Shown here: positions 156-16,778 of the stretch, piece by piece
Position numbering within the stretch: position 1 is the stretch's first letter
How the letters are laid out: every line of letters begins with the position of its first letter
Source: an uncultured Oscillospiraceae bacterium
Lineage (GTDB): Bacteria; Bacillota; Clostridia; Oscillospirales; Oscillospiraceae
Reading direction: 5' to 3'
Assembly (NCBI GenBank): GCA_934643765.1
Contig: CAKUCT010000014.1
Location: forward strand, 1 to 17,782
Length of the DNA: 17,782 bases
Notes under the pieces: model-generated
Database searches by the model: none
What the model saw: only the letters and a program-made list of their open reading frames with translations
Told to the model about the DNA's origin: nothing
Translations under genes and position numbers: made by a program

Positions 156-1076
156 TTAAAACGGCTCACCGTTCGGCAAGGTAGGCAGCATTCGATATAC
201 GGACGTCAAACGGCGTTTGAAAGCGTCAAAGCTCGCCGGTTCTTCCAGCTGTACATTGGGGTACTGTTTCTCCAACGGAATGTTGCTGATAATATAGACT
301 TCCGTATAACATGCCATGCGGTCAGCATAGCGGCAAGGCAGCGGCACTGGATAGCCGTCCAGATAGCAAAGCATTTCCGTTAACGGCAAACTAGAACGGA
401 ACTCGTCAAAAAGAATTACCTTTTGTCCTTTGTAGCCATCAAAAGGGTGCACATAATTTGTTACCCGGTAGACATTTTCATATCCGTGTTTTTCCATGAC
501 ACTTCGTGTTTTACCTACACCAGACTCGCCCCAGATATACGTCACTGTCAATTCGCGGAATTTCGTGCGTTGTTCCTCTTCCAGCAGTGTCTGGCGGGCT
601 TGTTCAATTCGTGGCAGATGCAACATTGCGCCCGGACATTCCCGCAAAATTTCTGCATCGGTTGCGCCGTCATGCAGCATAGACATGATTTTCTCCGTCT
701 GCTTAACGCGGCGGTCGGATTCCTCCGGCAGTTCTCCAGATTCTTCAAACGTTTCTGGCTTGTTTGTCTCGGACTTTTCGCTGTCGCGCCATCTGCCCTC
801 TTTGCGGATATAATCCCTGTTTTCCTGGTGCGTACCTCTGGCGGCTTCAATGTGCGCACCATAAAAGCGGCGCTGCATCATGGAAAACTCTTTGGCGTTT
901 TCAAATGCGACGTACAAATGTGTGTGATACGTCGAACCTTCTTCGTCGCACATGCACCAATAGACGATACCGGAAATATCCTGCAATATGCTTCTGATGG
1001 TTTCATGGTCGAATCCATGTTCCTGCGGGTTATTGAACGTCAACTGAAACTTGCGATACGCCTTATTTCTTGGCAT
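156..1076 (-). CDS. Rolling-circle Rep protein: N-terminal HUH endonuclease fused to an SF3 helicase (CRESS-DNA-virus/pCRESS-plasmid-like). Possible replication initiator or relaxase of the integrated element.
   Basis: Start trimmed to MPRNKAY (ATG rc of 1074-1076) behind AAAGGAGGAATT. Endonuclease motifs: motif I FQLTFNNP, motif II (HUH) YHTHLYVAF, motif III YIRKEG (YxxK). Helicase motifs: Walker A GESGVGKT, Walker B VILFDEF, motif C YIISN. Confidence 0.8.
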   Translation of the reverse strand: MPRNKAYRKFQLTFNNPQEHGFDHETIRSILQDISGIVYWCMCDEEGSTYHTHLYVAFENAKEFSMMQRRFYGAHIEAARGTHQENRDYIRKEGRWRDSEKSETNKPETFEESGELPEESDRRVKQTEKIMSMLHDGATDAEILRECPGAMLHLPRIEQARQTLLEEEQRTKFRELTVTYIWGESGVGKTRSVMEKHGYENVYRVTNYVHPFDGYKGQKVILFDEFRSSLPLTEMLCYLDGYPVPLPCRYADRMACYTEVYIISNIPLEKQYPNVQLEEPASFDAFKRRLTSVYRMLPTLPNGEPF

Positions 1077-1195
1077 AATTCCTCCTTTTAACTGTTGAGA
1101 ATCATCTCCTTTCAAAATTACAATTCATCTTCAAAAACATATTCTATTATTTCTGATGATTCTATGGTGGGTAGGTGTACACAACTTACATTGTT

Positions 1196-3269: not shown

Positions 3270-3930
3270 TTCTTGTTTGTCGTCCAGCAAGCCCAAATGC
3301 AGAACATTGCCGCGCCCAGCCATCCAGTCGCTTTCCGACTCGGACAGGCTGATGGCGCTGGTAGTCTGGCTGTGATACTTGCGCGTCAACGCGCCGTTAT
3401 AGTCAAATTCATTGCGCTGAATCTCGCGCTGCGCGCGGTTCAGCTCCGACAGAAGATCCGGCCGCTGCTTGGAGACGCCGAAGTATATAGTCGCTTGAGC
3501 CGATATCCACCAACGGCACATAGCCGTAGGCAATGGAAAGGTCAGGCGTTACAATCGTCTCCACCTCACCCGCGTCCAGCGCGTCCATCAGCTCATTGTA
3601 GCCGTGAAGTGGAACAACCTCTGCCGAAATTTCATTTTCCGCCAACCACTGCACCAAAAGATCCAGCTGATAGCTGTCGGCCGTCACGCCGATGCGGCAG
3701 CCGTCAAAATCGCTCAGATCGCCGAACAGGTCAATCTCGCCGCTGACCAGCATATCGTAGCATTCCTTGAACGAGCCGTGAACGTATTCATACTCCCAGC
3801 CGGTCACAGAGGAAATCTTCTGGAGGTATTCATAGCCCGCGCCGGTCTTATACCCGCCCTCATACTCTTCTTCATATGTGATTGCGTTCACGTAGCCCAC
3901 GCGGACAGCCTTGGCCGCCTGCTGGCCATG
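3270..3930 (-). pseudogene. Decayed N-terminal fragment of a sensor protein with tandem periplasmic solute-binding (SBP_bac_3-like) domains.
   Basis: Homology is split across two frames. ORF 3409..3900 gives VRVGYVNAITYEEEYEGGYKTGAGYEYLQKIS...SFKECYDMLVSGEIDLFGDLS. ORF 3174..3533 gives YFGVSKQRPDLLSELNRAQREIQ...LSESESDWMAGRGNVLHLGLLDD. There is an in-frame stop at 3931-3933 upstream of the domain and no signal peptide in frame. An apparent internal deletion follows GDLS. No kinase or output domain follows. Confidence 0.6.
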
Positions 3931-4142: not shown

Positions 4143-4173
4143 AAGGGCACTTCCCAAAAAAGGAAGTGCCCTT
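4143..4173 (-). terminator. Hairpin 14 nt downstream of the nucleoside hydrolase stop; probable end of the long operon.
   Basis: A 12-bp stem AAGGGCACTTCC (4143-4154) pairs with GGAAGTGCCCTT (4162-4173). The T-tract is good on the plus strand (GTTTTGA) but weak on the minus strand. Confidence 0.45.
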
Positions 4174-4187
4174 GTTTTGATGACTGA

Positions 4188-5159
4188 TTATCCGACGGGG
4201 TAAGCGTAGGTCTGATCCATGAACGTGGTGATGAGCTCGGCAGCCGCCTTCTCGCCTTCCACATCCATGCAGAACGTTGTAAACGGCGCGTCAAACGGCT
4301 CTTCGCGCACGTCTGTCACGATCATACCGCGGCAGTACGTGCCGCCGCATTCCACGCGCGCGCGCATCTTGCGCATCATCACAAGACTCGGGTCCACTGC
4401 AACCAGCACGGCCAGCGGATCGTGCACCGGGCAGTCGTCGATGCAGTTATTCTGCACGCGGTTGAAGCGGTAATAGAAGTGCAGCGCCTGCTTGATGTAC
4501 TCACAGATGGGCCGGTTTTCTTCTGCGCAATAGTGATCGAGCGCCTGGATATGGCGAAGGGTCAGGCGCGTTTTCATCGTAACGTCCAGACCGATCATCG
4601 TCAGATCAAAGCCCGCCATCATGACCATATCTGCAGCTTCGGGGTCGCCGATGATATTGGCCTCCGAAACGGGCGAAGCGTTGCCGCTCACCTTCACAGT
4701 GCCGCCCATGGTCACAACATTTTTCAGAAGCTTCGGAAGGTTCGGCTCCAGCTGCAGCGCCTGCGCAAGATTCGTCATACGCCCAAGCGTCACCAACGTC
4801 AGCTCGCCCGGGTTTTCCCGCGCCATGCGCACAATAAACTCGTGGCCCGGCTCCTTGACCGGCTTCTGGCCGACAGCCGGGAGCTGCGCCTCGCCGACGC
4901 CGTTTTTGCCGTGGATGTGCGGCACCGGGCCGTCCCATTCGCCATTGAGCGGGCGGCCGGCGCCGATTGCAACCGGTACTTCATAGCCGGGCTTTGCCAG
5001 ATGCACCAGACGGATGCTGTTTTCCGCCGCCTGCTCCGCGGTTGTATTTCCGAAGCCGGTGATAATGCCCATAACGCGCACATCGGGCCGCTTCAGGGCG
5101 AACAGAATCGCAATGGAATCATCAATGCCGGTATCGCAGTCGATCAGCATTTTTATCAT
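4188..5159 (-). CDS. Nucleoside hydrolase (IUNH / Rih family N-ribohydrolase).
   Basis: N-terminal aspartate cluster LIDCDTGIDDSIAI. Other family motifs: VTLGRMTNLA, NASPVSEANIIGDPEAA and VHDPLAV. AAGGAG lies 9 nt upstream of the ATG. Confidence 0.9.
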   Translation of the reverse strand: MIKMLIDCDTGIDDSIAILFALKRPDVRVMGIITGFGNTTAEQAAENSIRLVHLAKPGYEVPVAIGAGRPLNGEWDGPVPHIHGKNGVGEAQLPAVGQKPVKEPGHEFIVRMARENPGELTLVTLGRMTNLAQALQLEPNLPKLLKNVVTMGGTVKVSGNASPVSEANIIGDPEAADMVMMAGFDLTMIGLDVTMKTRLTLRHIQALDHYCAEENRPICEYIKQALHFYYRFNRVQNNCIDDCPVHDPLAVLVAVDPSLVMMRKMRARVECGGTYCRGMIVTDVREEPFDAPFTTFCMDVEGEKAAAELITTFMDQTYAYPVG

Positions 5160-5197
5160 TTCTATAAACTCCTTTTTCTATGTAACGTTTTCCCGTA

Positions 5198-6124
5198 TCA
5201 GTTCAGGCGCACAGCCTTTGCCTTCTGCTGCTTGCAGATCGAGAAAATGGTCAGACCCAGAATCGTCGCCACATACGGCAGCATATCAATGAACTGCGAG
5301 GGAATTGCCAGCAGCTGCAGCGTATTGGACAGGCTGTCAAAGAATGCGAAGACCATGGACGAGAGGAACACGCCGAGCGGTGTGGACTGTCCCATCGCCG
5401 CCGCGGCCAGCGCGATAAAGCCGCGGCCGGCTACCATGTCGCGCGTAAACATGCCGATATAGCCCATCGACATATACATGCCGCCAAGGCCCGTCAGAAT
5501 GCCGCAAAGCAAAATCGCAATGTAGCGCGTCTTGTTGACGTTGACGCCGACCGAGGACGCCGCCGCCGGATTTTCGCCCACCGAACGACTCCGAAGGCCG
5601 AGCGGCGTCTTATACAGGATGAACCAGACCACAAAAATGGCAAGGAACGCCAGATAGGTAATCAGGTTGTGGCCTGAGATGATTTTGCCGAGCACCGGAA
5701 TGTCTTCAATCAGCGGAATGTGCACTGTCGGGAACGAGAAGCTCTTCAGAGACGAGCTCGTGCCCTTTTCGCTGGTGATGGTATAAAGCAGCATGACTGT
5801 TGCACCGGCGGCAAAGGTGTTGATGGCCGTGCCGCAGAGGACGGCGTTCGCCTTCAGATTCAGATGGAAATAGGCAAACACAAGGCTGACCAGCAGTGCA
5901 ACGCCAAGCCCTCCGACCAGGCCCCAGAACAGGCTTCCGCCGAACGCGCCGCCGAGCACACCGCCCAGCGCCGCCAGAAGCATCATGCCCTCCAGGCCGA
6001 GATTTACAACGCCTGCCTGATTGCAGAGGCTGCCGCCCAGCGCGGGAAGCAGGATCGGCGTTACAACGCGGATCCACATATAGACAAATTCAACACTGAA
6101 AATGTTTTTTAAGATAATGGACAT
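5198..6124 (-). CDS. ABC transporter permease (BPD_transp_2 type, nucleoside/simple-sugar class), second permease.
   Basis: Polytopic membrane protein. Start trimmed to MSIILKN (ATG rc of 6122-6124) behind GAGGAGGAAGCGT. The basic 21-aa extension in the ORF track would overlap the upstream gene. Confidence 0.85.
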   Translation of the reverse strand: MSIILKNIFSVEFVYMWIRVVTPILLPALGGSLCNQAGVVNLGLEGMMLLAALGGVLGGAFGGSLFWGLVGGLGVALLVSLVFAYFHLNLKANAVLCGTAINTFAAGATVMLLYTITSEKGTSSSLKSFSFPTVHIPLIEDIPVLGKIISGHNLITYLAFLAIFVVWFILYKTPLGLRSRSVGENPAAASSVGVNVNKTRYIAILLCGILTGLGGMYMSMGYIGMFTRDMVAGRGFIALAAAAMGQSTPLGVFLSSMVFAFFDSLSNTLQLLAIPSQFIDMLPYVATILGLTIFSICKQQKAKAVRLN

Positions 6125-6137
6125 ACGCTTCCTCCTC

Positions 6138-7217
6138 TCACGGCTTCGGCTGCGCTGCAGCCTGCTCTTTTTCTGCCGCCTCGACAATCAGCTTCTGACG
6201 CCAACGCTGCAGCAGCGCGCCGGAGGCAATCAGCAGCATAATGACCGCCTGAATGATCTGGGCGACCTCGCTGCTCACGTCACTGTTCATTGACATGATG
6301 TTTGCGCCGGTGTTGATGTAGGCGATAAAGCAGGCGCTCAGCGGAACCATCAGAGGATTGTCCTTGGCCAGAAGCGCAACGACAATGCCGGTCCAGCCGT
6401 ATCCGGGGCTGGCCGTCCATTTGAAGCGGTTGTACATGCCGAGCAGCTCCACGCCTCCGCCAAGACCGGCGATCGCACCCGCGATCATCTGCGCGCCGAC
6501 CATGATGCCCGTCTCATTCAGGCCGACATAATGGGCAAACGAGGCGTTTTCGCCCGTCAGCCGCAGCCGGTAGCCAAAGCGCGAACGGTAGATGAGGACC
6601 CAGCACAGAACGCTGCAGACCACGGCGAAGACAACGCCGAGATGAATGTTTGTGCCCGGAATGATTTTCGGAATGATACTTGTTTCCGTCAGCTTCCAGG
6701 AGCAAAGAGACGAGTTGCCGAGCTCACGGAAGTGATAGGTCACAAGATAGATTGCAAAGAACTGGATGACATAGTTCAGCATGATCGACGTGACGACTTC
6801 GCTGACATTCCAGAGCTTTTTGAGAAACGCCGGAACCGCCGCAGCCAGCGCGCCGGCTGCCGCCGCGACCAGCAGTGCCACAACCATATGCACGCCCGCC
6901 GGAAGCGTGATTGCCAGGGATACCACCATCGCCGCCGAGGTTCCAAGGAAGAAGGAGCCTTCGGAAATCATGGAGAACTGGCCAGCGCCGAAGATCAGCA
7001 TCACAGCCAGCGCCGTAAAAATCAGCGGGCACGCACCCTCAACGATGTTACCGATGCGGCGCATGGACAAAAACGGGCCGATGAAGAAATTATACAGTGC
7101 GTTTCCGGGCTCATCGCTCACCAAAAAAATGATGACTGCAATCATGGCAAGCGCGATGAGCAGGATCATCAGCAGCTTGACGCTGTCCACCAGCAAATTG
7201 ATTTTTTTATTGCTCAT
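6138..7217 (-). CDS. ABC transporter permease (BPD_transp_2 type), first permease.
   Basis: Polytopic membrane protein. Its ATG overlaps the ATPase stop codon (ATGA, 7214-7217). Confidence 0.85.
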   Translation of the reverse strand: MSNKKINLLVDSVKLLMILLIALAMIAVIIFLVSDEPGNALYNFFIGPFLSMRRIGNIVEGACPLIFTALAVMLIFGAGQFSMISEGSFFLGTSAAMVVSLAITLPAGVHMVVALLVAAAAGALAAAVPAFLKKLWNVSEVVTSIMLNYVIQFFAIYLVTYHFRELGNSSLCSWKLTETSIIPKIIPGTNIHLGVVFAVVCSVLCWVLIYRSRFGYRLRLTGENASFAHYVGLNETGIMVGAQMIAGAIAGLGGGVELLGMYNRFKWTASPGYGWTGIVVALLAKDNPLMVPLSACFIAYINTGANIMSMNSDVSSEVAQIIQAVIMLLIASGALLQRWRQKLIVEAAEKEQAAAQPKP

Positions 7218-8770
7218 TTTGCTACCTCCGCGATCTGCTCATCTGTCTGGCGCTCAATGCCAAGCATGTAACGGCCCAGCATCTCCTCTGTCACAGCCTT
7301 TGTGTCCGGGAAATAAGCGGCAATCTTGCCGCCGCACAGCACAATCAGACGATCCGCCAGACCAAGCAGCTCGTTGAGATCTGACGAAACCAGCATGACA
7401 CATTTGCCGCTGTCGCGCAGCTTCAGAAGCTCCTTGCGGATAAACTCCGTCGCGCCGACGTCAACGCCGCGCGTCGGCTGGTCGGCAATGACAATCTCGG
7501 GCGTGCTGGACAGCTCTCGCGCCAGAACGACCTTCTGAATGTTGCCGCCGGAGAGGCTTGAAATGCTCACATCCGGAGACTTGCAGACAACCTGATACTG
7601 CGAAACCATCTCTCTGCCGTATTCGCGGATATTCTTTCTGCGAAGAAGGCCGAGCTTGCTGACAAAGCGTGCATCGTCACTCTTGTCGGCCAGCGCATTT
7701 TCCGTGATGGAAAGCTGGCCCGCCATGCCGACGCTCATACGGTCCTCTGGAATATAGCTGACCTTCAGCTTGCGCACCTGCCGGGGGCCCATCCCCTTGA
7801 TGTCCTTGCCCAACAGCTCCACCGCGCCGCCTTCAAAGCCGCGGTTGCCGCTGAGAATTTCAACCAACTCGCCCTGGCCGTTGCCCTCGACGCCGGCAAT
7901 GCCGAACACCTCCGCGCGCTTGGCGCAGAAGCTCACGCCGTCGAGCCGCTTCTGGCCCAGGATGTTGCGCGCCGTCAGTTCCTTCACGGAAAGGACGGTT
8001 TCCCCCTGCTTGGCAGGCGTCTTGTCGATCTGCAGCACAACGTCGCGGCCAACCATCAGCCGGGAGATCTGCGCCTCGTCGACGTCTGCGATGTTGTAAA
8101 CGCCCATGGTCTTGCCGCGCCGGATGACCGTAATCCGGTCGCACAGCGCGCGCACTTCGTTGAGTTTATGTGAAATGAAGATGATCGTGTAGCCGTCATC
8201 TCGCAATACTTTCAGTTCCTGGAACAATTCCTGCGTCTCCTGCGGCGTCAGAACGGCCGTCGGTTCGTCAAGAATCAGAATCTTTGCGCCGTGGAGCAGC
8301 GCCTTGAGGATCTCCACCTTTTGCTTCTGTCCGACCGAAAGGTCACGGATCTTTGCCCGCGGCGGGACATTCAGATTATACTTTTCAGAAATTTCAACGA
8401 CGCGCTGCTCTGCGAGCTTCTGGTCGATGACAATTCCCTTCCTCGGCTCCAGACCGAGAATCATATTTTCGACCACAGACAGCGACGGCACAAGCATGAA
8501 GTGCTGGTGCACCATGCCGATTCCGAGCTCGATGGCCTTTGTCGGTGAGGTGATCTGCACCTTTTCTCCGTTGATATAGATTTCTCCGCGCGTCGGCTGC
8601 TCTTCGCCGAAGAGGAGCTTCATCAATGTCGATTTACCGGCGCCGTTTTCACCGGATAACGCATGGATTTCTCCTTGTCTGACGCAGAAATCAATCCCAT
8701 TATTTGCGACAACACCATTGGAATAGACTTTTGTGATATGCTCCATGCGCAGTGCTTCCAACTCTTGCAT
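7214..8770 (-). CDS. ABC transporter ATP-binding protein with duplicated ATPase domains (nucleoside/sugar importer type).
   Basis: First half: Walker A GENGAGKST, signature LSVGQKQKVEI, Walker B ILILDEPT. Second half: GVEGNGQGEL, LSGGNIQKVVL, IVIADQPTRGVD. GGAGGAG ribosome-binding site upstream. Confidence 0.9.
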   Translation of the reverse strand: MQELEALRMEHITKVYSNGVVANNGIDFCVRQGEIHALSGENGAGKSTLMKLLFGEEQPTRGEIYINGEKVQITSPTKAIELGIGMVHQHFMLVPSLSVVENMILGLEPRKGIVIDQKLAEQRVVEISEKYNLNVPPRAKIRDLSVGQKQKVEILKALLHGAKILILDEPTAVLTPQETQELFQELKVLRDDGYTIIFISHKLNEVRALCDRITVIRRGKTMGVYNIADVDEAQISRLMVGRDVVLQIDKTPAKQGETVLSVKELTARNILGQKRLDGVSFCAKRAEVFGIAGVEGNGQGELVEILSGNRGFEGGAVELLGKDIKGMGPRQVRKLKVSYIPEDRMSVGMAGQLSITENALADKSDDARFVSKLGLLRRKNIREYGREMVSQYQVVCKSPDVSISSLSGGNIQKVVLARELSSTPEIVIADQPTRGVDVGATEFIRKELLKLRDSGKCVMLVSSDLNELLGLADRLIVLCGGKIAAYFPDTKAVTEEMLGRYMLGIERQTDEQIAEVAK

Positions 8771-8799
8771 GTACGCTCCTCCAATCAGTTTTTAGATAA

Positions 8800-8829
8800 G
8801 AACAGGGGCAACCTAAGCTGCCCCTGTTC
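8800..8829 (-). other. Intercistronic hairpin between the binding-protein gene and the ATPase gene.
   Basis: An 11-bp stem GAACAGGGGCA (8800-8810) pairs with TGCCCCTGTTC (8819-8829). No U-tract follows on the minus strand. Confidence 0.4.
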
Positions 8830-8849
8830 GGGAATCTTATGAAATGCAA

Positions 8850-10049
8850 TCAGGGCTTGACGGATTCACGCAGAGCTGCCACTTCTGCGGTTTCCATGGT
8901 GTAAGCCGTGTCGACCGTGATCTCGCCGGAGACGACCTTGGATACGATGTCCTCAAGCTGTGCGCGGGTCTCTTCGGTAGTCAGAGCCTGGAAGTTGTCG
9001 TTGTCAGCCAGACCGACAGCGCCCTCTGCAAGGCCCATGGAGTAGGTCTCACCGGTGGACTTGCTGCCGTCCCATAGGCCGGTAGCAGCCAGGACGATGG
9101 CGTCGCCCATCTTCTTCAGCGAAGAGGAAACAACGTTTGCAACCAGCTCCGGATCAGTGTCAACGAGCATGGTGTAAAGGTCCGTGTCGCAGCCGATGAG
9201 CATCTTGTTGCAGTTCTTGGAAGCCGTCACAGCGCCGACAATACTCTGGGAAGCCGGAGCGTAGACAACCTGCGCGCCCTGGTTGTAGACCTGGGTGGTC
9301 ATTTCAAGGCAGGTAGCAACGTCTTCGAACGAGCCGACATAGGACGTGATGACCTTGATGGAGTCGTCGATATACTGGATGCCCTCGATGTAGCCAACGA
9401 GGAAGTCATTGATGGCGGCACTGTCCATGGAGCCGACAAAGCCGGCGATCTTCTGCTCGGGATCGATGTTGCCGGCAGCATTGTCGATTTCAAGCGCGGC
9501 CAGGCAGCCTGCCATAAAGGCGGTCTCATAGGCGCGGAAGGTGATGCCCATCATGTTCGGAGAAGAAATTTCACCGTCGATGAACAGATACTGCTGATCG
9601 GGATAGTCGGCTGCAACCTCTTCGAACACTTCCTGGACAGACCAGGTGCAAGCGACGATCAGGTCCCAGTTCTGCTCGGAAACATCACGGAAATAGGTCT
9701 CGTAAGCGGTTTCGTCACGGCCCATCTCGATGATCTTGATCTCGCAGCCGTAATCGCTGCCCAGACGCTCAATGCCTTCAGCGCAGGAATCATAGAAGCC
9801 CTTGTCGCCCAGGTTGCCGTTGACCAGGAAAACAACACGCTTGCCTTCCGAGGTGCTGGAAGCCGTTTCTGCGGGCTGCTCTTCCTCGGTGGTGGAGTCA
9901 GCTTCGGTTTCTTCTGCCGGCTCCGTCGTCTCAGTTGTCTGCGTGTCCTGTGCTGTCTGGCTATCGGTGCTGGCCGGCTTGGATGCGCAGGCCGTAAGCA
10001 CGCTCAGCAGCATCAGCATAGCCAACAGAAGCGATACAAACTTTTTCAT
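8850..10049 (-). CDS. BMP-family (PnrA/Med-like) lipoprotein; substrate-binding component of the nucleoside ABC importer.
   Basis: Signal peptide plus lipobox LTAC. A ~45-aa acidic T/E/S-rich linker follows. Bmp-family body: VVFLVNGNLGDKGFYDS...GFVGSMDSAAINDFLVGYIEGIQY. TAGGAGG ribosome-binding site upstream. Confidence 0.9.
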   Translation of the reverse strand: MKKFVSLLLAMLMLLSVLTACASKPASTDSQTAQDTQTTETTEPAEETEADSTTEEEQPAETASSTSEGKRVVFLVNGNLGDKGFYDSCAEGIERLGSDYGCEIKIIEMGRDETAYETYFRDVSEQNWDLIVACTWSVQEVFEEVAADYPDQQYLFIDGEISSPNMMGITFRAYETAFMAGCLAALEIDNAAGNIDPEQKIAGFVGSMDSAAINDFLVGYIEGIQYIDDSIKVITSYVGSFEDVATCLEMTTQVYNQGAQVVYAPASQSIVGAVTASKNCNKMLIGCDTDLYTMLVDTDPELVANVVSSSLKKMGDAIVLAATGLWDGSKSTGETYSMGLAEGAVGLADNDNFQALTTEETRAQLEDIVSKVVSGEITVDTAYTMETAEVAALRESVKP

Positions 10050-10107
10050 GTGTAGAGTACCTCCTAAAAATCTTTATATCATCCAGCCGCGCTGGAAAAT
10101 ATACGTC

Positions 10108-10947
10108 TCAGATCAGAACGATATCCGTAAAGCCATTGTTTGCGGCAATCCGGTAATAGCCCTGCATTTCCTCCGCCGTGGGCGAACGGAACTGCGCCTG
10201 ATACGGCGGGCGGACACCAAATTTCCGGTAAGCAATGATTTTATAGCGGATAGAGCGCGTTGTCAAATAGGGCCGGAGCAGCGCCGTGATTTTTTCAACC
10301 GTCTGGCTGTTCGGAAGAACGTCCGGCACAATGACCGTCCGGATTTCTTCGAGCTTTCCGGTCTTGGCAAGATACACTGCGTTTTCCAGCACCATGTCGT
10401 TGCCGCAGCCGGTCAGCGCCTCATGTGCCTTCGTGTCAAACGCCTTGACATCCAGCATCACGCCGTCGCAGACCTCCATGAGCTCCGGGTCAGACGCATA
10501 GTCGTAGCTGCCGTTGGAATCCATGAGCGCGGACAGGCCGTGTTCTTTTGCCATACGGAACAGCTCCAGCACAAAATCGCGCTGCAGCGAGCACTCGCCG
10601 CCGGAGACGGTAATACCGCGGATAAACGGCACATCCGGCAGAATCTGCTCCATCACCTGCTGCGCGCTCATAACCGTCGTCCGCGGGGAGGCAAGATTCG
10701 GACAGATGTGGATGCACGTATCACAGCTGCAGCAAAGCGTCTCGTTCCAGGAAACTTTGCCGTCCTCGATAGACAGCGCACCTGCGGGACATTTCGCGAC
10801 GCACGCGCCGCAATTTGTGCAGCAGTGAATGGTCTCCGGATTGTGGCAGTACGAACAGGCGAAATTGCACCCCTGCAGGAACACCACCGCCCGGTTGCCG
10901 GGTCCGTCGACCACACTGCTGTGTAAAATCCGATTGACGATCGCCAT
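10108..10947 (-). CDS. yjjW: Glycyl-radical enzyme activating enzyme (radical SAM), YjjW family.
   Basis: CNFACSYCHNPE is the CX3CX2C radical-SAM cluster motif. Two ferredoxin-like motifs, CTNCGACVAKCP and CCSCDTCIHICP, plus GGEC. The ATG overlaps the upstream GRE stop codon (TAATG). Confidence 0.85.
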   Translation of the reverse strand: MAIVNRILHSSVVDGPGNRAVVFLQGCNFACSYCHNPETIHCCTNCGACVAKCPAGALSIEDGKVSWNETLCCSCDTCIHICPNLASPRTTVMSAQQVMEQILPDVPFIRGITVSGGECSLQRDFVLELFRMAKEHGLSALMDSNGSYDYASDPELMEVCDGVMLDVKAFDTKAHEALTGCGNDMVLENAVYLAKTGKLEEIRTVIVPDVLPNSQTVEKITALLRPYLTTRSIRYKIIAYRKFGVRPPYQAQFRSPTAEEMQGYYRIAANNGFTDIVLI

Positions 10948-12458
10948 TACAGATGCCGCACCTTCCGATCGTAAACCTTGCCGTTTTTCACCTCGCCGTA
11001 GCCCCAGAAGGCGTTTGCCTGCGGGACGGCCTGGCCGGCGTCGAGCTTTGCGATATCCGACTTCTTGACAAGATAGCCCGTGATGCGGATGACATCGCTG
11101 TCAGAGCAGTAGGTGGAGAAATACCGCATGCCCTGCGCAAAGCTTCCTTTGATCAGATCCACGATTGCCGCGGGATTGCGCTTTGCCGTCTCGTCGAACG
11201 GGAAAATATCGCCCACGCCGGAGGTGAAGTACGGATGCATCTTCGCGCAGTGGCGCAGATGCTCATAGAGCGGCAGCTCCGAGCCGATGGCGATACGCAC
11301 GCCGGGGCTGATGCCGATATCGGAGTCAATGCCGACCTGCGCGTGCAGGGAGAAATGATGGTCCGTGCAGGCGCAGTATTTGCTGGTGAACGCGGCGTTG
11401 CATTCCTGCAGCTTTTCAAGAATTTTCTTTGCCAGCGCATCGGCCGCCTCGCTGTAGCCGTAGCGGTCGTCTTTTCCTTCCTTCTGCATCAGAAGGTTCA
11501 CGCATTCATTCATGCCGACCACGCCGAGCATGGCCGTGAACCGGTCGAGCTGCAAAAAGCCCTCCTGCACCAGGAAGTTGGAGCGGAAGAACTGGCTCTT
11601 TTCCACCAGGAACTCCACCTTCTGCTCCATATATTCACAAAGCGTCGCCACCGCGTGCGGCAGAAGATCATTGATAAAGTGTTCGCTGTCTTTTGCTCTG
11701 GCCGCCAGACGGCTCAACACCACGCGTGAAAGCGTGAACGAGCCGCCGCCGATCGGCAGCGCGTTGTAGCAGCTGGCCACACCATACGGTGTGTCATACA
11801 GCTTGCTATATTCCTTGTGATTTGCAAAGCTCGGCTTTGCGCAGGCCAGCGCGCACTGCACGCACTCCTGCGCAAAATCGTCCGGCGTAATGTCCGGATC
11901 ATACAGAAGCGTAATCGACGGGATGGCATTTTTCATCTGCGTCTGCAGCTTTACAATCATCCGTCCGGCGCGCGTGGCCTCCGGGCCGAGATTCATATGG
12001 CAGTAGGAATCGGGAATCGTGCGGTCCAGGAAGACCAGGAAGCTCCGCATCAGACGCTCTGCGTCCGGATCGTCCATAAACGGCTCGAGCATTTTATCCA
12101 CGGAGCCAAGATACACCGGGTAGTGCGTGACCGACGGGATGTGCCGGTAAAACATCTCCAGCGTCTGGATGGCGTCAAACAGGTTATCCGGCGGGTCGAG
12201 CCGCAAAAACTTGCAGCCCTCGCGCAGCAGCTTTTCATAATCAGGCAGCGTGTAGCGCGGATTATACGTCACATTGCCCTCCGACATCGTGCACAGGCAA
12301 CCAGCCTCATTCAGCTCCCGAAACGCCGCGGTCGTATCAAAAAACTCCACGTAATTCAGCGGTACAGCCGAGAGATTCATTGCCTGCTGTTCATTCGTCA
12401 GCGCGGTATCGGTGAGGATGCTCTCCACATCGCGCTTCAGACTCGTAATGTTCAGCAT
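10947..12458 (-). CDS. yjjI: YjjI-family glycyl-radical enzyme (short GRE, DUF3029-type), substrate unknown.
   Basis: 503 aa from the ATG at 12458 (GGGGG 8 nt upstream; the TTG at 12491 in the ORF track is less likely). The glycyl-radical fingerprint DVIRITGYLV lies near the C-terminus. The gene is immediately and translationally coupled to a GRE activase. Length and arrangement match the E. coli YjjI/YjjW pair. Confidence 0.8.
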   Translation of the reverse strand: MLNITSLKRDVESILTDTALTNEQQAMNLSAVPLNYVEFFDTTAAFRELNEAGCLCTMSEGNVTYNPRYTLPDYEKLLREGCKFLRLDPPDNLFDAIQTLEMFYRHIPSVTHYPVYLGSVDKMLEPFMDDPDAERLMRSFLVFLDRTIPDSYCHMNLGPEATRAGRMIVKLQTQMKNAIPSITLLYDPDITPDDFAQECVQCALACAKPSFANHKEYSKLYDTPYGVASCYNALPIGGGSFTLSRVVLSRLAARAKDSEHFINDLLPHAVATLCEYMEQKVEFLVEKSQFFRSNFLVQEGFLQLDRFTAMLGVVGMNECVNLLMQKEGKDDRYGYSEAADALAKKILEKLQECNAAFTSKYCACTDHHFSLHAQVGIDSDIGISPGVRIAIGSELPLYEHLRHCAKMHPYFTSGVGDIFPFDETAKRNPAAIVDLIKGSFAQGMRYFSTYCSDSDVIRITGYLVKKSDIAKLDAGQAVPQANAFWGYGEVKNGKVYDRKVRHL

Positions 12459-12502
12459 GATAATGCCCCCGAACTTCAAATTTTTGCGCAAACCGCGTCA
12501 TT

Positions 12503-12532
12503 TTGACATTGCGGCTTTTGCAGAAATATGAT
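12503..12532 (+). promoter_or_regulatory. Candidate sigma-70 promoter for the Crp/Fnr-family regulator gene.
   Basis: TTGACA (12503-12508), an 18-nt spacer, then TATGAT (12527-12532). It overlaps the divergent yjjI promoter back to back. Confidence 0.4.
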
Positions 12533-12569
12533 AGCATTAGAGCGCACATTAAAAAATGCCATTTGTCAC
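12528..12569 (-). promoter_or_regulatory. Promoter of the yjjI operon: extended -10 plus an upstream conserved motif in place of a -35 box.
   Basis: Minus strand reads GTGACAAATGGCAT (rc of 12556-12569), 19 nt, then TGCTATCAT (rc of 12528-12536). The -35 position reads TTTTTT. The same motif and spacing recur at 14781-14822. Confidence 0.5.
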
Positions 12570-12588
12570 TTTTTTAGAAAGGTTTTTT

Positions 12589-13293
12589 ATGTCTGATACT
12601 TTGATACACGTCCTGCTCTATATTCTCTCCGAAGATTATCAGTATCCGCTCCCCGCCGCCTGCGCAAAAATGCTTCAGGATGCCCATGTTCCGGTTCTGC
12701 ACGCGGCAAAGGGCTCGTCCCTTACCGTCAGCGGCGCTCCGGTTTCCGGCGTCTATGTGCTGCTCGACGGCTCCTGCAGCGCCGAAAAGATCACACCCTT
12801 CGGCCGCCAGCTCAGCGCCGCGGCCTCCAATCCTGTCCAGATCTTCGGCCTGCTCGAATCCCTCTCCCCTGCCTACACCTGCTATGTTACCACGCAGCGC
12901 TGCCTGTCCGACTGCGCATACCTCTGCATTCCGAGCGAAGAGTATCTGTACATGCTCCGGCACTCCAACGTGCTGTGCATGCTGAATCTGCAGTTTCTCA
13001 GCCTCCATGTGCTGCGTATCATGGATGAAAACGACCTTCTCCTGCTGCATAACATCCGCGACCGGATCCTGCTCTATCTCTATCACAGCGGAGACGGCGC
13101 GCACTTTCCGTTCCGGCTTCCTGTCAAACGCGAAGCCATGGCGCAGAATCTCAACATCAGCCTCCGCACGCTTTTCCGCCAGCTCGATGCGCTGGAGGAA
13201 GAGGGCATCATCTGCATTGAGCACGGCAAAATTATTCTGACCCAGGCGCAGCACACGCACCTGCGCCGGATTTTGGCCGATTTTGTATCATAA
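12589..13293 (+). CDS. Crp/Fnr-family transcriptional regulator.
   Basis: N-terminal cNMP-binding-like beta-barrel region (PVSGVYVLLDGSCSAEKITPFGR). C-terminal HTH REAMAQNLNISLRTLFRQLDALEEEGIICIEHGKI. I prefer the start at MSDTLIHV (ATG 12589); the ATG at 12556 is possible but lies inside the shared regulatory motif. Confidence 0.75.
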   Translation: MSDTLIHVLLYILSEDYQYPLPAACAKMLQDAHVPVLHAAKGSSLTVSGAPVSGVYVLLDGSCSAEKITPFGRQLSAAASNPVQIFGLLESLSPAYTCYVTTQRCLSDCAYLCIPSEEYLYMLRHSNVLCMLNLQFLSLHVLRIMDENDLLLLHNIRDRILLYLYHSGDGAHFPFRLPVKREAMAQNLNISLRTLFRQLDALEEEGIICIEHGKIILTQAQHTHLRRILADFVS

Positions 13294-13303
13294 AAACGAA
13301 TCG

Positions 13304-13339
13304 CCGCCGCAGATGCTTTCAGCATCTGCGGCGGTTTTT
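13304..13339. terminator. Bidirectional terminator between the convergent regulator and amidohydrolase genes.
   Basis: A 13-bp stem CCGCCGCAGATGC (13304-13316) pairs with GCATCTGCGGCGG (13322-13334), followed by TTTTT. An A-rich tract lies on the other side. Confidence 0.75.
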
Positions 13340-13342
13340 GTA

Positions 13343-14734
13343 TTATGCTTCAAATGCCGGGAAATAGGACACTTTGCTGCGCAGCACGCGCGTGCACGTC
13401 CTCTCCGCTGCCCGCGCAAGCTCCTGCTCGTCCACGCCCGTGAGCGTTCCGTCCCGGTAAACAACCTCTCCGTTGATCATCGTCATCCACACCCGGTCCG
13501 TCACGCCGCAGCGCGCCAGAAGCCCCTGCGGATCATGCAGCGTTCCGCTGTACTCCAGTTTGGAAATGTCCACGAGGAACAGATCCGCGCCCTTTCCGCA
13601 TTCCAGGCTGCCAAGATCGGTCCGGCCAAGCGTCTTCGCACCGTTGATTGTCGCGACCCGCAGCATCTGCGCAGCCGATGTGCACCCGCCGCGCTGCTTG
13701 CTGAAGTATGCCTGCATGAGATACGCCATACGCAGCGAGTCGAGAAGGTTCGAGCTGTCGTTCGTCGCTGAGCCGTCGCAGCCCAGGCTGACCGTCACGC
13801 CCTTTTTGAGCATATCCCCAATGTTCAGAATCGGGAAACCGCCGAGAACCGCGGGCCCCGGGCAATGCGACACGCCGCTCCCCGCCTGGCCAATGCGCGC
13901 ATACTCCTCCGGCGTCCACTCCCAGCCATGCGCATACCAGACATCCGGGCCAATGAACCCGATCTTTTCACACCAGTCGAGCGAACGCATGCCATATCTG
14001 GCCTGAATGATATCGTTTTCGCCCTCGCCCAGATGCGTGTGCATATATACGCCGTATTTTCTCGCCATTTTGACCGTCTCTACAAACGTGTCTTCATAGC
14101 AGTTCATCGGCTGGCAGGGCGCCATCACAATCTGGTGCATGGAAAACGGCGAGGCATCCTGGTATTTTCCGATCAGCCGCTCGCAGTCGGCAAGGAACTC
14201 GTCCGTCGTCTCAAGCATATTTTCCGGCATCGTGCTGCCCTTTTCCCGCGGCAACGTGTTGGTGCCGCGGCCGGCGTGATAGCGGATGCCGATCTGCGCC
14301 GCGGCGTCCATCTGCCGGTCCACCAGGAACTTGCCCGCCGCCTTTGTGTAGCAATACTGATGGTCAAAGGCCGTTGTGCAGCCGTGCTTGACCAGATCTG
14401 CAAACGCCGTCAGGGCCGAGTAGTAAATCACGTCCTCATCCACGAGCTGGAACACGTGGTAAATCTTATCCAGCCACTCCGGCACCGTCATCTGCGGATA
14501 ATCGATGCTTGTGAGGTTCCGGACAAACGTCTGGAAAAAATGGTGATGCGTGTTGACCAGACCCGGATACACAAACTTATCCGTCGCGTCAATGATCTCG
14601 CAGCCCTCCGGCACCGGAAGGTTCTTTCCGATTTTGACAATCTGCGGTCCATCAACGAGCAGGTCCGTATTCCAGTAAATATGATCTTCAGCATCGCAGG
14701 TGACAATCGCGCGGGCATTTCGAATCAGCTTCAT
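13343..14734 (-). CDS. Amidohydrolase-superfamily deaminase (8-oxoguanine deaminase / guanine-cytosine deaminase-like, COG0402 type).
   Basis: Metal-binding HxH motif in GLVNTHHHFFQTF. Other motifs: YMHTHLGE, YAHGW, SLGCDGSATND. Start trimmed to MKLIRNARAIV (ATG rc of 14732-14734) behind GAAAGGAG. Confidence 0.85.
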   Translation of the reverse strand: MKLIRNARAIVTCDAEDHIYWNTDLLVDGPQIVKIGKNLPVPEGCEIIDATDKFVYPGLVNTHHHFFQTFVRNLTSIDYPQMTVPEWLDKIYHVFQLVDEDVIYYSALTAFADLVKHGCTTAFDHQYCYTKAAGKFLVDRQMDAAAQIGIRYHAGRGTNTLPREKGSTMPENMLETTDEFLADCERLIGKYQDASPFSMHQIVMAPCQPMNCYEDTFVETVKMARKYGVYMHTHLGEGENDIIQARYGMRSLDWCEKIGFIGPDVWYAHGWEWTPEEYARIGQAGSGVSHCPGPAVLGGFPILNIGDMLKKGVTVSLGCDGSATNDSSNLLDSLRMAYLMQAYFSKQRGGCTSAAQMLRVATINGAKTLGRTDLGSLECGKGADLFLVDISKLEYSGTLHDPQGLLARCGVTDRVWMTMINGEVVYRDGTLTGVDEQELARAAERTCTRVLRSKVSYFPAFEA

Positions 14735-15057: not shown

Positions 15058-15336
15058 ATGCAAATCAGAGCATCCACGGCATTGCGCAACGAATATCTTC
15101 AGATTTCACAGCTGGCAAAGGTATCCGGCGAGCCGATCTATATTACAAACAAAGGCGAAGCCGACATTGTGATCCAAAGTATCGAAGCGTATGAACAGCG
15201 CGAAAAGATGCTGGCACACCGGGCAAGCGTCCTGGAAGCAGAACTGGATCGTCTGAGTGGTGCGCCGACATATTCTCCGGAACAGGTACGCGGCAGAATG
15301 AAGGAGATCTTTGATGCAGCAAGAGTATCAGATTAA
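15058..15336 (+). CDS. Type II antitoxin, Phd/YefM family.
   Basis: MQIRASTALRNEYLQISQLAKVSGEPIYITNKGEADIVIQSIEAYEQRE is the typical Phd/YefM N-terminal domain. AGGAGG lies 8 nt upstream of the ATG at 15058. The 83-aa N-terminal extension in the ORF track has no support. Confidence 0.8.
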   Translation: MQIRASTALRNEYLQISQLAKVSGEPIYITNKGEADIVIQSIEAYEQREKMLAHRASVLEAELDRLSGAPTYSPEQVRGRMKEIFDAARVSD

Positions 15337-15631
15337 ATATCTGCGCGCTGCCATGCGCGATTTGGAAAGTATTGCGCAGCTTTATCTCGGCTTGGCCGGT
15401 GCGGATTCCGCTGAAAAATTCATTGGCGAGATTCTGCATACCGTAGACCTGTTACGGACATTCCCATATTCCGGCGCGCTGCACCCGGATATGGTGCTGG
15501 CGGAACGGGAGTTCCGTAAGGTCGTTTGCCGTGACTATGTATGTGTCTACAAGGTCATTGACAGCGAAAAGACGGTCTATATCTACCGCATCGTGAACGG
15601 CAAGACAGACTATCCTCAGCTCTTGTACTAA
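15314..15631 (+). CDS. parE: Type II toxin, ParE/RelE superfamily.
   Basis: 105 aa with a family-typical pattern (IKYLRAAMRDLESIAQLY...LRTFPYSG...FRKVVCRDYVCVYKV...VYIYRIVNGKTDY). AAGGAG lies 7 nt upstream. The gene overlaps the antitoxin 3' end by 23 nt. Confidence 0.8.
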   Translation: MQQEYQIKYLRAAMRDLESIAQLYLGLAGADSAEKFIGEILHTVDLLRTFPYSGALHPDMVLAEREFRKVVCRDYVCVYKVIDSEKTVYIYRIVNGKTDYPQLLY

Positions 15632-15974: not shown

Positions 15975-16778
15975 ATGAATCTTCTTGTTGTGGACGATGA
16001 GCGCCTTGCATTGCAGCTTTTGACTGATACGATTCAAAAGGTGCTCCCGGACGCAACGATCTGCGCATTTACAAAGCCCTCCGAAGCGCTGCGCTTTGCG
16101 CAGGAAACAACCTGTGAGATTGCGTTTCTTGATATTCAGATGCGCTCCATGACCGGCTTGGAGCTTGCGCGGCGGCTGAAAAATATGCAGCCGAATATCA
16201 ATATTATCTTTGTCACCGGTTACGATGAATATGCCGGCTATGCCATGCGGATGCACGCCAGCGGTTATCTGATGAAGCCTGTCACGGAAGAAAAACTCCT
16301 ATTGGAGCTTGCCGAGCTGCGCCATCCGATTACACTTGAGCAGCCGCAGGCTGTGCTGCGGGTACAATGCTTTGGAAATTTCGATGTATTTACTGCGCAT
16401 GGCGAGCTTGTCCACTTTGAACGGGCCAAGGCAAAGGAACTCTTTGCTTATCTTGTATCCAAGCGCGGAGGCTCCTGCAATATCCGTTCGCTTGCCGGAA
16501 TCCTTTTTGAGGACACGCCTTACGACATCAAGCAATCGACCTATATGCGGACGATTCTTTCCAGTCTGACAAAATCGCTCAGAGCGGTTGGTGCAGAAGC
16601 AGTCCTGAAAAAGAATTATAACGAGGTTGCAATCGACACGCAGCTGCTTGACTGCGACTACTACCGCTTCCTGCGCGGTGAGGTATCTGCTGTCAATCGG
16701 TATCAGGGCGAGTTTATGGCACAATACTCATGGGCAGAATTTGTGACCGGCTATATTGAACAGAAAACGGTAAAATAA
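15975..16778 (+). CDS. Two-component response regulator: REC domain plus a C-terminal winged-helix (SARP/OmpR-like) DNA-binding domain.
   Basis: REC motifs LLVVDDE, FLDIQM (phospho-acceptor Asp), FVTGY and YLMKP. C-terminal region LRVQCFGNFDVF...AKELFAYLVSKRGGSCNIRSLAGILFED. GGAGGG lies 7 nt upstream. Confidence 0.85.
   Translation: MNLLVVDDERLALQLLTDTIQKVLPDATICAFTKPSEALRFAQETTCEIAFLDIQMRSMTGLELARRLKNMQPNINIIFVTGYDEYAGYAMRMHASGYLMKPVTEEKLLLELAELRHPITLEQPQAVLRVQCFGNFDVFTAHGELVHFERAKAKELFAYLVSKRGGSCNIRSLAGILFEDTPYDIKQSTYMRTILSSLTKSLRAVGAEAVLKKNYNEVAIDTQLLDCDYYRFLRGEVSAVNRYQGEFMAQYSWAEFVTGYIEQKTVK

Follow-up and report, generated by a model that had tools for sequence, protein, structure and literature searches.

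The glycyl-radical enzyme YjjI, whose gene heads a run of seven same-strand genes in a 17,782-nucleotide stretch of DNA from an uncultured Oscillospiraceae bacterium (contig CAKUCT010000014.1; this whole stretch is called the window here), can be set beside two groups of described enzymes: the class III ribonucleotide reductase (RNR) NrdD and the Escherichia coli glycyl-radical enzymes YbiW and PflD. The RNR scaffold evolved to abstract the ribose H3' and to expel the 2'-OH. The former orphans YbiW and PflD convert 1,5-anhydrohexitol-6-phosphate to 1-deoxyfructose-6-phosphate, acting on sugar phosphates by hydrogen abstraction followed by C-O cleavage (PMC13450708). A superfamily review of June 2026 describes all known non-RNR glycyl-radical enzymes as PFL-like, and mentions neither YjjI nor any nucleoside-catabolic glycyl-radical enzyme. 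Of the glycyl-radical enzymes in E. coli K-12, YjjI is among the last to which no reaction has been assigned. The statement of an earlier note on this DNA that no reaction has been given to it holds in the searchable full-text literature, in which no functional assignment was found for YjjI, yjjW, DUF3029, PF11230, TIGR04040 or a nucleoside-linked glycyl-radical enzyme. What is on record are expression data and a 2011 expression-based suggestion that E. coli yjjI takes part in nitrogen metabolism (PMC3228777). The E. coli gene is activated by FNR (PMC3688515; PMC2634741), a CRP site lies in its spacer with deoC (PMC4287617), and in Yersinia yjjI is among the genes induced anaerobically (PMC3792023).

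From the locus described here and a census of 81 others, we consider it highly probable that YjjI is functionally tied to nucleoside utilisation. The window is read as an anaerobic nucleoside-utilisation operon, for which a pathway is proposed below. The YjjI family and its name are already known, and the window does not hold a new kind of gene. New are the documented, repeated coupling of YjjI to nucleoside uptake and cleavage, and residue-level evidence for YjjI as a non-reductase offshoot of NrdD.

The yjjI operon of the window

Protein families in the window were assigned with Pfam and NCBIfam models. The earlier note had proposed seven co-directional genes running from position 12458 down to 4188; open reading frames (ORFs) were found at these coordinates, and each proposed identity was matched by a family model. 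The genes and their two neighbours are as follows.

10947-12458, minus strand: YjjI-family glycyl-radical enzyme, 503 aa (TIGR04040, 636.1 bits against a cutoff of 498.3; PF11230, 661.8 bits against a cutoff of 23)
10108-10947, minus strand: YjjW-family radical-SAM activase (TIGR04041, 364.6 bits against a cutoff of 250.2)
8850-10049, minus strand: Bmp/PnrA-type substrate-binding lipoprotein of an ABC importer (PF02608, 180 bits; lipobox LTAC)
7214-8770, minus strand: ABC ATPase with two fused nucleotide-binding domains (PF00005, twice)
6138-7217, minus strand: ABC permease 1, BPD_transp_2 family (PF02653, 106 bits)
5198-6124, minus strand: ABC permease 2, BPD_transp_2 family (PF02653, 119 bits)
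4188-5159, minus strand: IUNH-family ribonucleoside N-ribohydrolase (PF01156, 283.9 bits)
12589-13293, plus strand: Crp/Fnr-family transcription regulator (PF00027, 30.4 bits, and PF13545, HTH_Crp_2, 32.5 bits, both above cutoff)
13343-14734, minus strand: COG0402-type amidohydrolase/deaminase, on the operon strand and upstream of the operon (PF01979, 179 bits)

The tight junctions claimed for the operon were all found. Counting from yjjI, the yjjW start overlaps the yjjI stop (TAATG), gaps of 58 and 79 nt follow, permease 1 starts within the ATPase stop (ATGA), the ATG of permease 2, preceded by a GGAGG ribosome-binding site, lies 13 nt past the permease 1 stop, and 38 nt separate permease 2 from the hydrolase. 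The Crp/Fnr gene is divergent and the deaminase gene convergent, again as the earlier note had it; the Crp/Fnr and deaminase genes face each other across a 15-bp terminator. The closest relative locus (L002 in the census below, from an Oscillospiraceae gut metagenome-assembled genome, MAG) encodes a YjjI that is 94% identical and has the same gene order.

The YjjW translation contains a CNFACSYC radical-SAM cluster motif and two ferredoxin-like Cys clusters. Against NrdG models it scores 44-70 bits, with cutoffs of 126-131, and is thus not NrdG-type. Besides its lipobox, the binding lipoprotein carries an acidic Thr/Glu-rich linker. Among solved structures it comes closest, with E values from 1e-28 to 1e-23, to BmpD and BmpA of Borrelia, a lipoprotein of A. 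pernix and TmpC/PnrA of T. pallidum; identity to solved nucleoside binders is only ~25-30%, and all NCBIfam equivalog scores are far under their cutoffs. Judged by its composition, the four-component set of Bmp lipoprotein, double ATPase and two BPD_transp_2 permeases is a PnrA/Bmp importer, with a nucleoside as the predicted ligand.

The hydrolase has the N-terminal calcium/ribose-binding motif DxDxxxDD as DCDTGIDD at residues 7-14. Its closest named models are of the pyrimidine type (RihA, 187 bits with a cutoff of 433; UriH, 176 bits), both below the equivalog cutoff, and NCBIfam scoring placed it in none of the named specificity classes RihA, RihB, RihC and UriH. For the deaminase, the best model is 8-oxoguanine deaminase (NF006055, 385 bits, below the cutoff of 532) and the closest PDB entry is the 8-oxoguanine deaminase 7WW2 (E 2e-86). 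Neither deoB nor deoC is present inside the 17.8-kb window. In the GC-rich window, length-only gene calling preferred an antisense 346-aa ORF to the IUNH gene; this ORF was dropped when gene selection was weighted by homology.

Gene neighbourhoods of yjjI in other genomes

The earlier note had proposed that the neighbourhoods of YjjI homologues be scored for nucleoside genes. This was done on 80 loci, one per species and each taken with flanks of up to 10 kb, being the closest 80 of ~580 YjjI-positive species genomes, together with E. coli K-12. Neighbouring ORFs were clustered without prior labels, with gene selection weighted by homology support, and families of nucleoside uptake and catabolism ranked at the top. 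The number of loci, among the 81, in which each family occurs is given below.

ABC ATPase: 44 loci
Bmp binding protein: 34 loci
BPD_transp_2 permeases: 31 loci
PNP_UDP_1 phosphorylases (PNP/Udp): 23 loci
Crp-family regulator: 16 loci
Cytidine deaminase (Cdd): 12 loci
IUNH: 9 loci
COG0402 deaminase: 9 loci
DeoC: 8 loci
Adenosine deaminase (Add): 8 loci
GntR: 8 loci
DeoB: 7 loci
Uridine kinase (Udk): 6 loci
PfkB kinases (ribokinase-type): 5 loci

The cutoff for the uridine phosphorylase equivalog is exceeded by several phosphorylases (TIGR01718, 329 bits against 280), others being of the DeoD or PunA types, and one PfkB, encoded directly before YjjI, passes the ribokinase equivalog (TIGR02152, 310 bits against a cutoff of 300). 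In 25 loci a Bmp gene directly adjoins the YjjI/YjjW pair, and 64 of the 150 genes immediately flanking the pair belong to the listed families. Given at most a few copies per genome, we estimate that a Bmp gene would be expected near YjjI by chance in about 1% of loci, as against 42% observed; within 10-kb flanks it was found nowhere in the ~37 unassociated loci.

At least eight differing gene arrangements over three phyla were observed, which argues for repeated recruitment. The order YjjI-YjjW-Bmp-ABC-IUNH is that of the window and L002, and in L017 (Lachnospiraceae M18-1) it becomes YjjI-YjjW-IUNH-Bmp-ABC. In about 20 Lachnospiraceae the yjjI-yjjW pair sits inside the transporter operon, between the Bmp and ATPase genes (Bmp-YjjI-YjjW-ATPase-permease-permease); behind this set come Cdd, DeoC, Add and DeoB, and ahead of it Udk or Udp; these are loci L026, L045, L048, L054, L057, L058, L060-L066, L068, L076-L078 and L081, with YjjI mostly at ~10001-11527. 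The activase gene is apparently missing from one of them, L077, where Bmp, YjjI and ATPase are consecutive. Elsewhere a GntR-PNP-deaminase-ABC-Bmp set is divergent from YjjI-YjjW (Christensenellaceae, Sphaerochaetaceae and others), or the order is IUNH-IUNH-ribokinase-YjjI-YjjW (Youngiibacter, with a second set of Bmp-ABC-Udp past the Crp gene), YjjI-YjjW-IUNH alone (L010 and L016) or DeoC-YjjI-YjjW (L006). Among Spirochaetota, the divergent layout of Bmp-ABC-deaminase, together with Crp and GntR, is found again in Pleomorphochaeta and in a Sphaerochaetaceae MAG, and a Treponema contig carries YjjI, its activase, a phosphorylase (PNP), an MFS transporter, an ECF transporter and IUNH.

The earlier note had placed yjjW-yjjI beside deoCABD and divergent from it in E. 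coli K-12, and had supposed that, if so, the nucleoside association recurs across phyla. This placement is correct (b4379-b4380, with a 257-bp spacer), and the association was found in Bacillota, Spirochaetota, Enterobacterales and two distant branches of the family. Edwardsiella has deoCABD and a NupC-type nucleoside transporter beside yjjI-yjjW. Of the two distant branches, each a cluster at 50% identity, one has a BPD_transp_2 permease directly upstream of YjjI and the other encodes adenosine deaminase, PfkB, the activase and YjjI consecutively. The occurrence of three transporter classes (Bmp-ABC, NupC and ECF/MFS) and of both families that cleave the glycosidic bond points to a nucleoside theme rather than to one inherited operon.

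Some further features of these loci were recorded. L020 (a Gemmiger MAG) and L037 (Clostridium sp. ZS2-4) each have a second gene for a YjjW-like activase, a few kb away from yjjI-yjjW. A TatD-family hydrolase gene (yjjV in E. coli) is found a few genes from YjjI in Enterobacterales, Lachnoanaerobaculum and two Oscillospiraceae MAGs (L001, 8482-9261; L084, 11968-12759; L054 and L061, ~4377-5162; also L069 and L071); TatD travels with metG in Firmicutes, and its proximity to YjjI may therefore be incidental. In C. thailandense (L035, 15070-17069) and C. drakei (L038, 15705-17704), about 3.5 kb downstream of yjjW, the gene for a pseudouridine-kinase-like PfkB (247 bits with the pseudouridine kinase model, below the cutoff) overlaps an unannotated 303-aa gene, and the two may form a pseudouridine module. 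Two apparent fusion proteins, P0030 (653 aa, Bmp and YjjI, from a Logan contig) and P0124 (574 aa, YjjI and DeoC, from an E. coli record), are probable assembly or gene-calling artefacts given the orientations of the genes, and were not used as evidence.

YjjI as a relative of NrdD and its possible reactions

YjjI scores above the curated cutoffs of both TIGR04040 and PF11230. Its catalytic Cys230 is placed in an S229-C230-Y231-N232 loop and its glycyl-radical site, Gly461, in the motif R458-I-T-G461-Y. Both motifs are kept in at least 97% of 36 diverse family members, among which Cys230 is the only universally conserved Cys. YjjW is adjacent to YjjI in 81 of 82 loci, the window included. The glycyl radical and its use in catalysis are predicted from these motifs and from the adjoining activase. 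The family is small and closely knit: a profile search of 1.84 billion cluster representatives gave 619 YjjI matches, mostly fragments, and there are only ~20 full-length clusters at 50% identity.

No family member with a solved structure was found in a profile search of the PDB, which by sequence returned only a marginal match to NrdD (E 0.25). An AlphaFold2 model of YjjI (pLDDT 93.6, pTM 0.92) was compared with the PDB using Foldseek, and ranks 1-32 were all NrdD (TM 0.56-0.75, E 4e-18, identity 11-14%), with PFL-like enzymes below every NrdD match. YjjI also gives a partial match to Pfam NRDD (41.8 bits against a cutoff of 26.2). When its profile was aligned by hhalign with a six-sequence NrdD alignment, consisting of the E. 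coli protein and five phage proteins, the probability was 95% (E 3e-8, 392 columns, YjjI residues 41-449); against a single NrdD it was 19%, which is unreliable. In the six-sequence alignment, NrdD N174-C175 pairs with the invariant R68-Y69 of YjjI, G402-R-N-N405 pairs with G239-S-F-T242, E496 pairs with the invariant E318, and the invariant NrdD motif YTNSFH falls in a gap. The NrdD ATP-cone N-terminal region is absent from YjjI, as is the Zn-ribbon Cys4, with no cysteines near the YjjI Gly loop in place of NrdD C644, C647, C662 and C665. These comparisons show YjjI to be a homologue of NrdD, sharing the barrel, the finger-loop Cys and the Gly loop, that has lost the reductase machinery. Assignment of YjjI as a class III RNR or ribonucleoside reductase was considered and rejected, since neither the second catalytic Cys nor the Asn is retained. 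Nor does YjjI have the Cys-x-Glu motif that defines the glycyl-radical eliminases and isomerases (PMC13450708): its loop reads Cys-Tyr-Asn, and neither PF02901 nor PF01228 was matched at E <= 0.001. Within the NrdD alignment, the 952-aa protein of Eggerthella phage EL753P1 (L093) has large insertions around the finger-loop Cys (alignment columns ~400-770) that are absent from the other five sequences and resemble an intein or homing element situated at the active site.

In the pathway that we propose, the PnrA/Bmp-type ABC importer would take up nucleosides, IUNH would split ribonucleosides into base and ribose (as uridine and purine nucleoside phosphorylases would in other species), deaminases would funnel the bases, and YjjI, activated by the radical-SAM enzyme YjjW, would carry out an oxygen-sensitive step. 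The Gly461 radical would generate a thiyl radical at Cys230, which would abstract hydrogen from a hydroxyl-bearing carbon of a pentose, with ribose 5-phosphate, ribose 1-phosphate and the ribosyl group of a nucleoside as candidate substrates. The reaction would then proceed as a redox-neutral beta-elimination or rearrangement, comparable to those of YbiW/PflD and to the opening half-reaction of RNR. It would give a deoxy-keto pentose, which aldol-type or hydrolytic cleavage could split into C2 and C3 units. That YjjI acts in this redox-neutral way, by radical elimination or rearrangement, on the pentose of imported nucleosides is a reading we favour tentatively, giving it somewhat less than an even chance.

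The earlier note had left the nucleoside, the released base and the ribose side by side as substrates, and the evidence leans towards the pentose. Deaminases near YjjI vary by locus (cytidine, adenosine and several COG0402 subtypes) and span pyrimidines and purines, and bond cleavage varies between hydrolase and phosphorylase. Both sugar routes lead to ribose 5-phosphate, one by hydrolase and ribokinase, the latter encoded directly before YjjI in Youngiibacter, and the other by phosphorylase and DeoB. This convergence, the RNR scaffold and the loss of the reducing Cys together favour the pentose. From them we infer a pentose substrate and an elimination rather than a reduction, and the regulation described below is likewise our inference.

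Several points weigh against this picture. In about half of the 81 loci, mainly those of Clostridium sensu stricto, the 10-kb flanks contain no nucleoside gene, and Proteus and four of six sampled distant family branches also lack nucleoside neighbours. In most Clostridium sensu stricto the neighbours of YjjI are an HD-domain protein, BirA and a metallophosphoesterase; with MCP, Na/Pi cotransporter, PHP domain and ABC exporter genes counted as well, no coherent second theme emerged from the unassociated loci, in which YjjI may be unlinked from its partners or the family may be functionally split. The association also follows the phylogeny of YjjI, so that locus counts overstate the evidence and independent events are far fewer than loci. 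Genes for DeoC, Cdd and phosphorylases are in any case frequent companions of Bmp transporters, and their linkage may be to the transporter rather than to YjjI; a promoter-like site within yjjW could uncouple transporter expression from the radical enzyme. Gene association alone does not identify the substrate of YjjI, both cleavage routes yield the free base as well, and the YjjI loop has Cys-Tyr-Asn instead of the Cys-x-Glu of known glycyl-radical eliminases and isomerases.

Four other explanations were weighed. One has YjjI act on a nucleobase after its release, or on an intermediate derived from the base (for example uracil, xanthine or a deaminated product), in an oxygen-independent ring-opening or defunctionalising step, with the ribose passing to ordinary pentose metabolism. 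Both the IUNH and the phosphorylase routes release free base, deaminases (Cdd, Add and COG0402) recur near YjjI, and uridine-centred Udk, Udp and Cdd flank it in Lachnospiraceae. This is nevertheless unlikely: the deaminases differ by locus and act on purines as well as pyrimidines, so that no single base is implied, the YjjI scaffold derives from a ribose-working enzyme, and no dihydropyrimidinase, ureidopropionase or xanthine dehydrogenase is seen among the recurrent neighbours. A little less likely than a base is a non-canonical nucleoside imported or formed under anoxia (such as 5'-deoxyadenosine, methylthioadenosine (MTA), pseudouridine or a damaged purine nucleoside), of which YjjI would handle the unusual sugar or the C-glycoside that hydrolases cannot process. 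Christensenellaceae-type COG0402 neighbours score best with models like those of 5'-deoxyadenosine and MTA/S-adenosylhomocysteine deaminases, the window deaminase with 8-oxoguanine deaminase, and a pseudouridine-kinase-like PfkB occurs near YjjI in two Clostridium genomes; set against this, all these deaminase scores lie below equivalog cutoffs except that for 8-oxoguanine deaminase in L011, the commonest partners are ordinary (uridine phosphorylase at equivalog level, cytidine deaminase, adenosine deaminase, uridine kinase and ribokinase), and E. coli K-12 has no matching salvage genes beside yjjI.

A lower chance again is given to YjjI still being a reductase, an analogue of class III RNR at the nucleoside or pentose-phosphate level that would use formate or another donor to make 2-deoxyribose compounds for deoxynucleoside salvage or for cleavage by DeoC into acetaldehyde and glyceraldehyde 3-phosphate. 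The homology to NrdD, the presence of deoC beside yjjI in E. coli, Edwardsiella and L006 and in several Lachnospiraceae operons, and an FNR-dependent expression that coincides with formate production would all fit such an enzyme. The residues do not: the essential bottom-face Cys (C175 in E. coli, C79 in phage T4) is replaced by the invariant Tyr69 and Asn405 by Thr242, and only one Cys is conserved across the family; moreover, thioredoxin, glutaredoxin and formate genes do not recur near YjjI, and the window itself is without deoC. Least likely of the four is that the co-localisation is non-functional, YjjI and YjjW having an unrelated anaerobic role and lying near nucleoside genes through shared regulation or hitch-hiking. 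The absence of any association in about half of the loci, the inflation of counts by synteny inherited within Lachnospiraceae, and the placing of E. coli yjjI with nitrate and nitrite genes in expression biclustering in 2011 (PMC3228777) speak for coincidence, but they have to be set against many arrangements in three phyla with three transporter types (Bmp-ABC, NupC and ECF/MFS), the insertion of the YjjI/YjjW pair inside a transporter operon, and junctions that overlap or are shorter than 100 nt.

For a pentose-directed YjjI, a wider proposal can be put forward, with considerable doubt: that YjjI founds a second functional branch among NrdD-like glycyl-radical enzymes, catalysing redox-neutral radical dehydration or rearrangement of ribose 5-phosphate or a ribonucleoside. 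It would thereby provide a new anaerobic route, extending from E. coli to gut Clostridia and spirochaetes, on which nucleoside-derived pentose yields C2 and C3 units with no need of transketolase or transaldolase. If true, the RNR scaffold would have been reused for catabolism in a new class of radical reaction, and it would be shown how abundant gut anaerobes (Lachnospiraceae, Oscillospiraceae and Christensenellaceae) and enterobacteria draw carbon and energy from nucleosides without oxygen. The locus and the census narrow the candidate substrates to ribose phosphates and common ribo- and deoxyribonucleosides, and provide defined partner enzymes and a candidate regulator with an operator.

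Control region, surroundings and comparison with known systems

Four non-coding or regulatory features were located around and within the operon.

4143-4173, minus strand: 13-bp GC-rich hairpin, likely the end of the operon, 14 nt past the IUNH stop (dG -25.9 kcal/mol, z -4.1)
10266-10238, minus strand: promoter-like, sigma-70-type TTGACA-17-TAAAAT inside the 3' end of yjjW, with 11 of 12 consensus positions (a consensus match only), ~190 nt upstream of the Bmp start
12459-12588, between the divergent genes: control region with the imperfect palindrome ATGCCATTTGTCAC at 12556-12569
13303-13335, both directions: bidirectional terminator hairpin of 15 bp separating the Crp and deaminase genes

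The hairpin after IUNH is the sole strong one downstream in the direction of the operon, as the earlier note had claimed, and none of 200 shuffles folded as well; on that strand it has no clean U-tract. Class II promoters activated by Crp/Fnr proteins have their binding site centred at -41.5. For yjjI, a -10-like TATCAT lies on the minus strand at 12533-12528, 22 nt beyond the palindrome, which puts the palindrome centre at this same -41.5. On the plus strand, a promoter scan found a promoter-like TTGACA-18-TATGAT for the Crp gene at 12503-12532, and the start of that gene is more likely at 12589 than at 12556.

A Crp-family member adjoins YjjI in 16 other loci, and the pattern ATGACA-N2-TGTCAT, with at most two mismatches, precedes yjjI in 6 of the 16 loci with a Crp neighbour as against 2 of 63 without (background 0.06 per kb). 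The 22-nt spacing from palindrome to TATCAT/TACCAT is kept in L004 and L005. No Cx2Cx5C pattern, as in the oxygen-sensing Cys cluster of FNR-type proteins, is visible at the N-terminus of the Crp/Fnr regulator, in which several cysteines are scattered through the protein. From this arrangement, the divergent regulator probably activates the yjjI promoter from the palindrome. The promoter-like site inside yjjW implies that the transporter genes may also have a promoter of their own, and may serve as an internal promoter from which importer and hydrolase are expressed without the radical enzyme.

Beyond the hairpin, a 319-aa ORF at 156-1115 (minus strand) matches a CRESS-DNA-virus or plasmid-type Rep (Viral_Rep, PF02407, 33.7 bits) with an SF3 helicase (PF00910, 28.7 bits). 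Its neighbours are an XRE-type HTH gene at 1772-2125 and a DUF2726 gene at 2103-2687. GC content around the Rep ORF falls to 43-47%, which suggests that an integrated mobile element borders the operon. Between this element and the operon, a 163-aa ORF at 3409-3900 (minus strand) has a weak partial SBP_bac_3 match (21.9 bits, below cutoff) and is probably the remnant of a gene for an amino-acid-binding protein. On the other side, immediately upstream of the deaminase region, genes for a Phd/YefM antitoxin and a ParE toxin form an overlapping pair at 15060-15631 (plus strand), after which a receiver-domain response regulator is encoded at 15975-16778.

Set beside described systems, the locus combines elements that are otherwise found apart. 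The logic of E. coli deoCABD, with phosphorylase, mutase and aldolase, recurs around YjjI in Firmicutes; the window, without deoB or deoC in its 17.8 kb, differs in using an IUNH hydrolase rather than phosphorylases. With the PnrA/Bmp importers that accompany cdd, deoC and pnp in Gram-positives and spirochaetes, the window shares the four-component transporter, and related loci share the companion genes. To our knowledge, known PnrA/Bmp operons contain no radical enzyme, whereas in the window the YjjI/YjjW pair leads the operon and in Lachnospiraceae it stands between the binding-protein and ATPase genes.

YjjI itself resembles class III RNR NrdD in the ten-stranded barrel, the C-terminal Gly loop (RITGY in YjjI, RRVCGY in NrdD), the finger-loop Cys and the Glu (E318, E496 in E. 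coli NrdD), and both are anaerobic enzymes that need a radical-SAM activase. It differs in its low sequence identity (12-14%), in having Tyr69 for the second Cys and Thr242 for the Asn, and in missing YTNSFH, the Zn-ribbon Cys4 and the ATP-cone. YjjW belongs to the larger activases, which carry two additional ferredoxin-like clusters and usually serve PFL-like enzymes, and the context of YjjI is nucleoside catabolism, not dNTP synthesis. Compared with YbiW and PflD, which are PFL-like, ~800 aa long and have a Cys-x-Glu loop, YjjI is NrdD-like, ~500 aa long and has Cys-Tyr-Asn. Those two enzymes act on phosphorylated cyclic sugars, abstract hydrogen beside a C-O bond with no net redox change and feed an aldolase (PMC13450708), and by analogy they offer the closest functional parallel to the reaction proposed for YjjI.

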